Positions 20,242-20,544 of a stretch of 64,000 bases of DNA are shown here, piece after piece (position 1 is the stretch's first letter; each line of letters begins with the position of its first letter). Source of the DNA: a bacterium (GTDB lineage Bacteria; Elusimicrobiota; Elusimicrobia; UBA1565; UBA9628); NCBI GenBank assembly GCA_021782205.1, contig JAJXVH010000003.1, positions 31,931 through 95,930 on the forward strand, read 5' to 3'. Position numbers and translations under genes: made by a program. The notes under the pieces are model-generated. The model was not told the origin of the DNA. It did no database searches and was given only the letters and a program-made list of their open reading frames with translations.

Positions 20242-20544
20242 ATGACCGACAAGACCTTCGCCGCAACGGAGCAGAGGCGCCATCCGCGCTCCCCCGTGGG
20301 CGTGACTCTGGATTTGCGCCTTTCCGGCGACGCCCCGCTCTGCCGCGGCACCATCTCCGACCTGTCCCCGGGCGGTATGACCTTCCAGACGGACGCTTTG
20401 CTTGAAAAGGGAATGACGTTGCACCTAAAGCTTCCCTCCGAGATCGAAATCCGCGGCGAGGTACGCCACGTCGGCGCGCCCGTCGCCGGACTGCGCCGCT
20501 GCGGCGTACGTTTCCACAAGATCGGGTACGCCCCGGTCATCTGA
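20242..20544 (+). CDS. stand-alone PilZ-domain protein (putative c-di-GMP receptor)
   Basis: 100 aa. RxxxR (QRRHPR) followed about 24 aa later by DxSxxG (DLSPGG). Beta-rich remainder. Confidence 0.8.

Follow-up and report, generated by a model that had tools for sequence, protein, structure and literature searches.

A conserved PilZ gene between atpG and atpD in Elusimicrobia: a candidate link between c-di-GMP and the F1Fo ATP synthase

The DNA analysed here, a stretch of 64,000 nucleotides (nt) from an Elusimicrobiota genome (assembly GCA_021782205.1, contig JAJXVH010000003.1, positions 31,931 to 95,930) that is called the window in what follows, contains an F1Fo ATP synthase (atp) operon in which a gene for a small PilZ protein, pilZ, lies between atpG and atpD, the genes of the F1 gamma and beta subunits. 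The gene encodes a single PilZ domain in which both motifs for the binding of cyclic diguanosine monophosphate (c-di-GMP) are intact, and its position is deeply conserved among Elusimicrobia lineages. This gene order suggests that c-di-GMP controls the ATP synthase. The specific proposal examined here, that the pilZ product is a c-di-GMP-dependent adaptor which acts on F1Fo ATP synthase and slows or blocks its rotation, is put forward tentatively, and we place it a little short of an even chance. The features at the locus, in window coordinates, are:

19325–20224, forward strand: atpG, F1 gamma subunit, 299 amino acids, start MASLREL (Pfam ATP-synt, 273.7 bits; TIGR01146, 251.9 bits)
20232–20238, forward strand: Shine-Dalgarno sequence AAGGAGA upstream of the pilZ ATG, in the atpG-pilZ spacer
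20242–20544, forward strand: pilZ, 100 amino acids, ATG to TGA; single-domain PilZ protein, an a-type member of the atp-embedded family
20275–20289, forward strand: codons R12-R13-H14-P15-R16 of pilZ, the RxxxR c-di-GMP arm
20359–20376, forward strand: codons D40-L-S42-P-G-G45 of pilZ, the D/NxSxxG c-di-GMP motif
20561–21985, forward strand: atpD, F1 beta subunit, 474 amino acids (TIGR01039, 794.5 bits)

The pilZ product matches the Pfam family PF07238 with 49.1 bits against a cutoff of 22.5 (E = 7.8e-13), and residues 10–94 of the protein align with profile positions 1–88 of 102. The RxxxR motif (R12-R-H-P-R16) and the D/NxSxxG motif (D40-L-S-P-G-G45) are both intact, with 23 residues between them, and the protein is basic, with an isoelectric point (pI) of 9.6. 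An earlier note, made from the letters of this DNA without database searches, had called the gene a PilZ receptor, and the profile match and the two motifs bear out that call. The score against TIGR02266 (gmx_TIGR02266, a PilZ paralogue family) is 26.1 bits, which is below the threshold of 68.7.

A search of Protein Data Bank (PDB) chains by sequence with the family profile gives no match at E ≤ 1, and a fold search was therefore used. The AlphaFold2 (AF2) model of the protein, which was built on 47 homologues, has a mean predicted local distance difference test score (pLDDT) of 82.8 and a predicted template modelling score (pTM) of 0.71, and it is an all-beta, six-stranded antiparallel barrel. 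The N-terminal arm (residues 1–11), directly ahead of the RxxxR motif, has a pLDDT below 50 and is disordered, and no C-terminal helix follows strand 6 in the model. The best Foldseek matches in the PDB are c-di-GMP-bound PilZ domains, with a probability of 1.00, TM-scores normalised to the query (TMq) of 0.53–0.61 and E-values of 0.02–0.1; such modest E-values are expected for a barrel of 100 residues. These matches are BcsA (4p00 and 4hg6), 4xrn, YcgR (5y6f) and MotI (5vx6), and further matches include VCA0042 (3kyg and 2rde), PP4397 (3kyf) and MrkH. Judged by all of the sequence and fold features of PF07238, the pilZ product is a minimal canonical PilZ receptor, and its intact motifs predict that it binds c-di-GMP. 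Foldseek also reports a weak resemblance of the barrel to the one at the N-terminus of HerA ATPases (TMq about 0.5).

The junctions on both sides of pilZ are tight. The stop codon of atpG (20222–20224) is separated from the pilZ ATG by a 17-nt spacer, gaatttcaaggagaccc, and the stop codon of pilZ (20542–20544) is separated from the atpD ATG at 20561 by 16 nt; these distances and the shared strand, which the earlier note had reported, are confirmed on the sequence. A GGAG-type motif is present at the Shine-Dalgarno position in seven of the eight related loci inspected. Over 19599–20992 the window agrees at every position with an independent contig in Logan, derived from a sequencing run of mine-drainage DNA, which indicates that the pilZ junctions are not an assembly artefact of the window. 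A pattern scan finds no promoter-like or terminator-like site in the 16–17-nt spacers around pilZ, so that co-transcription of pilZ with atpG and atpD is strongly implied by the sequence. By its strand, by spacers too short to hold signals of its own and by a position kept in about 17 contigs, pilZ is a component of the F1Fo operon.

A homologue search that covered 5.8 billion proteins (E ≤ 1e-3) yields 170 clusters related to the pilZ product; the organism labels, where present, are all Elusimicrobia metagenome-assembled genomes (MAGs), and the genome matches, among those listed, are Elusimicrobia/Elusimicrobiota MAGs, including GWA2_66_18. The best 120 of the 170 homologues are 81–112 amino acids long and 59–100% identical, and all belong to PF07238. 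The databases label the homologues 'PilZ domain-containing protein' or 'hypothetical', and JGI names some of them 'flagellar brake protein YcgR'. One sequence of 317 amino acids (P0130) was set aside as a probable chimera of assembly or gene calling; in it, an N-terminal PilZ of the family runs into a substrate-binding region like that of DnaK/HscA.

The ligand motifs are almost invariant among the 120 homologues: R12 is kept in 117, R16 in 118, D40 in 119, and S42 and G45 in 120 each. Additional invariant blocks that are specific to the family lie outside the ligand motifs, namely G57-M-T-L-H61, R71-G-E-V-R75, G83 and R85-R-Y-G-V-R-F-H-K93, and these blocks, together with the basic charge, may form a conserved partner-binding surface. 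A per-gene comparison across six related loci gives 58–96% identity for PilZ, which is the range of atpH, atpC and atpB. The ratio of nonsynonymous to synonymous substitution rates (dN/dS) of pilZ against its relatives is 0.06–0.47, with 0.06 for the closest relative, although dS has probably reached saturation in the more distant comparisons; the sequence comparison thus indicates purifying selection on the gene.

Because high-GC DNA yields many long chance open reading frames (ORFs), and many of these overlap the region in other frames or on the other strand, pilZ could in principle be a spurious ORF, or else a degenerate PilZ remnant that no longer binds its ligand. This explanation is effectively refuted by the Pfam E-value of 7.8e-13, the approximately 170 clusters of constant length, the dN/dS of 0.06, the intact motifs and the confident fold, and the pilZ ORF is far beyond what high-GC DNA produces by chance.

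Every family member inspected sits between atpG and atpD, in about 17 contigs and over a range of PilZ identity from 96% to 32%. The contexts inspected are the window, the related loci L001–L007 and L087–L097, and the contigs of the homologues P0105 and P0106; the distant members L087, L088 and L091 were found through a search of 50% representatives. At the atpG-atpD junction, the PilZ identity to the window protein is 96% in L001, 80% in L002, 66% in L003 and L007, and 62% in L004, and it falls through 54% in L087, 52% in L089/L090, 48% in L088, 42% in L091 and 40% in L092 to 32% in L093. In the last of these, the GC content is 52% and atpG is 37% identical to that of the window, and PilZ is still at the junction. 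The same order is shared by the contigs of P0105 and P0106, L096 and L097. The Elusimicrobia MAG GCA_016209025.1 at NCBI (L094) also has pilZ between atpG and atpD, with spacers of about 110–120 nt; at 2724–3567 of this locus, atpG is called as two overlapping pieces of 196 and 100 amino acids, which may reflect a frameshift or an assembly error.

The earlier note had proposed a check of this arrangement in related genomes and had named absence of the gene from the atp operons of close relatives, as in a random insertion, as the outcome that would speak against its reading. The order is kept in every member, down to 32% PilZ and 37% atpG identity, and the gene is present in every family context inspected; pilZ in the atp operon is not a random insertion. 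Additionally, the first homologue below the score range of the family (P0147; 61 bits, 35% identity, GC 43%) has no adjoining atp genes, and within the sample the family therefore ends where the atp context ends. Whatever the functional link, the arrangement documents an unusual and deeply conserved change to the layout of the atp operon within an uncultivated phylum.

In L089/L090, L092 and L093, two tandem pilZ paralogues are present between atpG and atpD, as an a-type and a b-type gene:

L089, 822–1498: tandem a-type and b-type pilZ between atpG and atpD
L092, 2372–2994: tandem a-type and b-type pilZ between atpG and atpD
L093, 1990–2654: tandem a-type and b-type pilZ between atpG and atpD

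The b-type proteins are more alike among themselves than to the a-types and have a basic amphipathic C-terminal tail; the window protein is an a-type. The second motif of the b-type PilZ of L092 reads SLSETG instead of D/NxSxxG. Some a-type proteins end in a C-terminal 'FISAKF' tail, and the window protein has no such tail.

As a control, metagenomes were scanned with an alignment of the gamma subunit, and 80 loci among the matches listed, an arbitrary sample, were examined. In 49 of these loci atpD directly follows atpG, and pilZ is present there only in L007, which belongs to the clade of the window. The other 48 atpG-atpD junctions have gaps of 20–306 nt and no family match anywhere in the locus; the gaps of about 300 nt in L036 and L046, which were examined for small ORFs, are non-coding and without pilZ. 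In 21 of the 80 listed loci (L009, L012, L047, L080 and 17 more), no atpD follows atpG despite 0.7–10 kb of downstream sequence, a pattern that suggests split operons in phyla other than Elusimicrobiota.

The placement of pilZ exactly between the gamma and beta genes, with spacers of the kind seen in translational coupling, and its conservation at the level of the minor subunits would also suit an assembly or stability factor: while F1 is being built, PilZ would attach to newly made gamma or beta subunits, or to the F1 head, with or without c-di-GMP, and would not regulate the complete enzyme. We consider this unlikely, since the ligand motifs are almost invariant, which argues for a signal-dependent action, and since F1 assembles without the protein both in the other bacteria sampled (the 48 junctions without pilZ) and in L008, a relative whose operon has no pilZ.

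A second conserved gene may connect the locus with c-di-GMP. This gene lies upstream of the atp operon and is transcribed divergently from it:

12590–13546, reverse strand: REC-GGDEF response regulator, 318 amino acids, with a GGDDF active-site motif (Pfam Response_reg, 98.9 bits; GGDEF, 60.1 bits)

The divergent arrangement is found in five of the six lineages for which upstream sequence is present (the window, the contigs of P0105 and P0106, L096 and L097), and contigs of matching size suggest at least four further co-located REC-GGDEF/pilZ pairs. The 120 best homologues of the protein are 65–96% identical, with organism labels, where present, of Elusimicrobia. Its GGDDF motif is kept in 120 of 121 homologues, and D58, N174 and D183 are kept in every sequence that covers them. 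The invariant Asp58 is the phospho-acceptor, and we take N174 and D183 to correspond to N335 and D344 of PleD, which contact the guanine. The Pfam GGDEF match covers only profile positions 5–110 of 161, and no RxxD I-site is present five residues upstream of GGDDF. Family hidden Markov model (HMM) and motif scans of the window detect no PilZ, GGDEF, EAL or HD-GYP gene other than pilZ and the REC-GGDEF gene, and an Rfam scan of the whole window returns only tRNAs, with no c-di-GMP riboswitch near the operon. The REC-GGDEF protein is a probable source of the PilZ ligand, and this conserved adjoining gene, which is absent from the earlier note, strengthens the reading that c-di-GMP controls the operon's product. 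At its 3' end the REC-GGDEF gene is overlapped by a convergent ORF (11886–12629, forward strand), which has a weak OmpR-type winged-helix match (Trans_reg_C, 25.4 bits, just under the cutoff) and lacks a receiver domain that can be recognised; the same pair is present on the P0106 contig and in L096.

A mechanism for the proposed adaptor can be outlined as follows. Phosphorylation of the REC-GGDDF protein would raise c-di-GMP, and the RxxxR arm of PilZ would close over the ligand on the barrel. The liganded barrel would then dock on F1 through its invariant basic hairpin, most plausibly in the rotor-stator region of gamma, beta and epsilon (gamma/beta-DELSEED/epsilon), and the docked protein would slow or block F1 rotation. 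As the outcome, ATP hydrolysis would be limited, or coupling would be tuned, on a change of lifestyle. The choice of F1 as the partner and of inhibition as the sign of the effect is made purely by analogy. The start codons may also bear on the dose of such a protein: 45 of the 120 homologues (about 40%) have L at position 1, which corresponds to a non-ATG start (TTG in L002, L003 and L006), and these starts would fit sub-stoichiometric synthesis, with lower translation than that of the neighbouring F1 genes. In its fullest form, the proposal is that Elusimicrobia hold a dedicated PilZ brake on F1Fo (a PilZa/PilZb pair in some lineages) that is fed by the adjacent two-component GGDDF cyclase; we regard this form as possible, with a confidence clearly below even.

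The interpretation of the synteny depends on the other genes of the operon, which are, with the promoter-like site that precedes them:

13577–13606, forward strand: promoter-like site TTGACA, 18 nt, TACAAT (11 of 12 matches in a consensus scan), between the divergent REC-GGDEF gene and the atp genes
13817–14212, forward strand: atpI-like membrane ORF of the atp operon
14202–14954, forward strand: atpB, ORF collinear with L001–L007
15044–15319, forward strand: atpE, ORF collinear with L001–L007
15399–15908, forward strand: atpF, ORF collinear with L001–L007
15908–16435, forward strand: atpH, ORF collinear with L001–L007
16437–17948, forward strand: atpA, ORF collinear with L001–L007
17945–18409, forward strand: orfX, 154 amino acids, with a hydrophobic, signal-peptide-like N-terminus
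18406–19323, forward strand: heptose-epimerase-like short-chain dehydrogenase/reductase (SDR), similar to ADP-glyceromanno-heptose-6-epimerase (TIGR02197, 274.6 bits, exactly at the cutoff)
21999–22433, forward strand: atpC, F1 epsilon subunit, 144 amino acids, with a C-terminal helical domain (ATP-synt_DE_N, 93 bits; ATP-synt_DE, 23 bits, just under the cutoff)
22494–22988, forward strand: Cupin_2 protein, 164 amino acids, directly after atpC

For the upstream part of the operon (14202–17948), the Pfam labels on related contigs agree with the atp gene calls. The epimerase gene is inserted between atpA and atpG and is 78–96% identical within the clade; L092 (57%) and L008 (50%), the latter without pilZ, carry it in the same position, and L093 and L094 lack it. 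An enzyme of lipopolysaccharide (LPS) or glycan precursor synthesis is an odd constituent of an atp operon. The orfX gene shares its first 4 nt with atpA and its last 4 nt with the epimerase gene, and it occurs only in the clade of the window (38–43% identity beyond the closest relative); it is absent in L008, L092, L093 and L094. Its product has no Pfam or NCBIfam family match, and a single-sequence AF2 model (pLDDT 42.5, all-helical) is uninformative. The cupin is 77–88% identical in relatives, which is above atpC, and on two related contigs its gene begins within atpC, with an overlap of 4 nt at the stop codon. It is apparently a fourth non-atp gene of the operon.

These genes bear on the chief alternative, in which pilZ is a passenger: a functional c-di-GMP adaptor that acts on something other than the ATP synthase, for example on motility, pili, the envelope or polysaccharide machinery, and is carried in the operon for steady, strong expression, in a position frozen by the tight packing of an essential operon. 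The epimerase gene, orfX and the cupin gene, which are conserved and collinear in relatives, are in agreement with this alternative, as is L008, where a histidine kinase (HisKA and HATPase_c, 441 amino acids) and a double-receiver REC-REC protein (250 amino acids) are encoded between atpD and atpC (7241–9326), which indicates that the atp operons of the phylum accumulate foreign genes. Moreover, single-domain PilZ adaptors have varied targets, for example CheR1 in the case of MapZ. However, pilZ is the most widely retained of the inserts, being present in L093 and L094 without the epimerase gene and orfX, and it has been duplicated in place. None of the family members inspected occurs at another type of locus, and the first homologue outside the family sits elsewhere. 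The approximately 40% of non-ATG starts, in turn, fit a deliberately lower dose and not hitch-hiking for high expression. On this evidence, the passenger explanation is rather doubtful.

A narrower alternative is that PilZ regulates the heptose-epimerase-like enzyme or envelope synthesis and thereby couples c-di-GMP to the supply of LPS or glycan precursors. The HldD-like gene is in the same operon (TIGR02197, 274.6 bits, at the cutoff), and c-di-GMP typically controls exopolysaccharide and envelope functions. The two genes are dissociated in both directions, however: L093 and L094 have pilZ and no epimerase gene, and L008 has the epimerase gene, an insertion that it shares with the window clade, and no pilZ. 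In addition, atpG always stands between the two genes. We therefore consider this alternative very improbable.

Several points weigh against the proposal that PilZ is an adaptor of the ATP synthase. The operon keeps three conserved genes without a known ATP synthase role (those of the epimerase, orfX and the cupin), and since it tolerates passengers, synteny alone is a weak proof of function. L008, the nearest PilZ-less relative (atpG 49% identical, atpA and atpD 73%), has atpD 21 nt after atpG. No fusion of PilZ to an atp subunit is seen. The REC-GGDEF gene is absent at the divergent position in L007, a GWA2_66_18-like lineage, and an obligatory partnership of the REC-GGDEF protein with PilZ is rejected, since the gene is not upstream of the operon there. 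The GGDDF motif departs from the GG[DE]EF consensus; the GGDDF enzyme GSU1937 makes cyclic dinucleotides, and the GGDDF protein PA3258 appears inactive (PMC8835794). With one such enzyme active and another apparently inactive, cyclase activity of the REC-GGDDF protein is plausible, and its product would be c-di-GMP or another cyclic nucleotide. Lastly, the RNA runs of the same mine-drainage study held nothing over pilZ and nothing from this organism; they contained only cross-matching conserved atpA/atpD fragments of other organisms.

If the proposed adaptor role is correct, PilZ would open a new class among the regulators of ATP synthase and give c-di-GMP a new output, the direct control of energy conversion, and the switch between sessile and motile lifestyles would be tied to bioenergetics. 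The principle that PilZ brakes a rotary motor would thereby be extended from flagella to the ATP synthase, in a simple system of one 100-amino-acid protein, one ligand and one well-understood enzyme. The second messenger controls motility, adhesion, secretion and polysaccharide synthesis, and we know of no direct link between c-di-GMP and F1Fo ATP synthase. To our knowledge, none of the proteins described as regulators of F-ATPases (epsilon, zeta, IF1 and AtpTheta) is a receptor for a second messenger. The literature searched, in which subscription journals are thinly covered so that a prior mention is possible, contains no PilZ gene in an atp operon and no link between PilZ and ATP synthase. 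The earlier note's statement that the arrangement is undescribed holds within this literature, and the novelty would lie in a PilZ adaptor with a new target.

Among known systems, YcgR of E. coli and Salmonella and MotI/DgrA of B. subtilis likewise contain a PilZ domain with the RxxxR and D/NxSxxG motifs and are among the top structural matches (5y6f and 5vx6). The proposed logic would also be similar, in that a c-di-GMP-loaded PilZ slows a rotary machine at the rotor-stator interface, and the braking of a rotary motor by PilZ proteins has its precedent in YcgR (PMC10140304, PMC12713396). YcgR and MotI differ in having an extra N-terminal PilZN/YcgR domain, whereas the window protein has 100 amino acids, a single domain and approximately 20% identity to them; without a second domain, the pilZ product is not of the YcgR type. 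The genomic setting differs as well: YcgR-type brakes (COG5581) occur in a flagellar or chemotaxis context, whereas pilZ is always next to atpG and atpD in the contexts inspected.

MapZ/PA4608 is a single-domain PilZ adaptor that binds CheR1. It resembles the window protein in being a stand-alone PilZ barrel of approximately 100–125 amino acids that acts by ligand-dependent protein-protein contact. The likeness in sequence does not extend beyond the domain, the model of the window protein has no C-terminal helix, and the genomic wiring is different.

In its proposed function, PilZ would resemble the F1 inhibitors, namely the C-terminal domain of epsilon, zeta of alphaproteobacteria, IF1 of mitochondria and AtpTheta of cyanobacteria, each a small basic protein or domain that attaches to F1 and prevents futile ATP hydrolysis in certain physiological states. 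These inhibitors differ from it in that their folds are helical and they are not known to bind any nucleotide second messenger, whereas the window protein is a beta-barrel. The pilZ product has no sequence match to an F1 inhibitor family (Pfam reports PilZ only), and none is among its Foldseek matches. AtpTheta of cyanobacteria provides the precedent for a small F1 inhibitor protein (PMC9241938).

A link between c-di-GMP and the RecA-fold rotary ATPase family that includes F1 beta is provided by the export ATPases FliI and HrcN. These F1-beta-like enzymes, and ClpB2, bind c-di-GMP directly, in a study in which ATP synthase is unmentioned (PMC4591828). FliI and HrcN take up the ligand themselves, whereas at the atp locus the receptor is a protein of its own, whose gene adjoins that of the ATPase subunit. 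Finally, the best Foldseek match, the cellulose synthase BcsA (4p00 and 4hg6; TMq 0.57–0.60), is a precedent for a PilZ domain that gates an enzyme complex; the PilZ domain of BcsA is part of the enzyme's own polypeptide, whereas here it is a free protein, for which the ATP synthase would be the enzyme.

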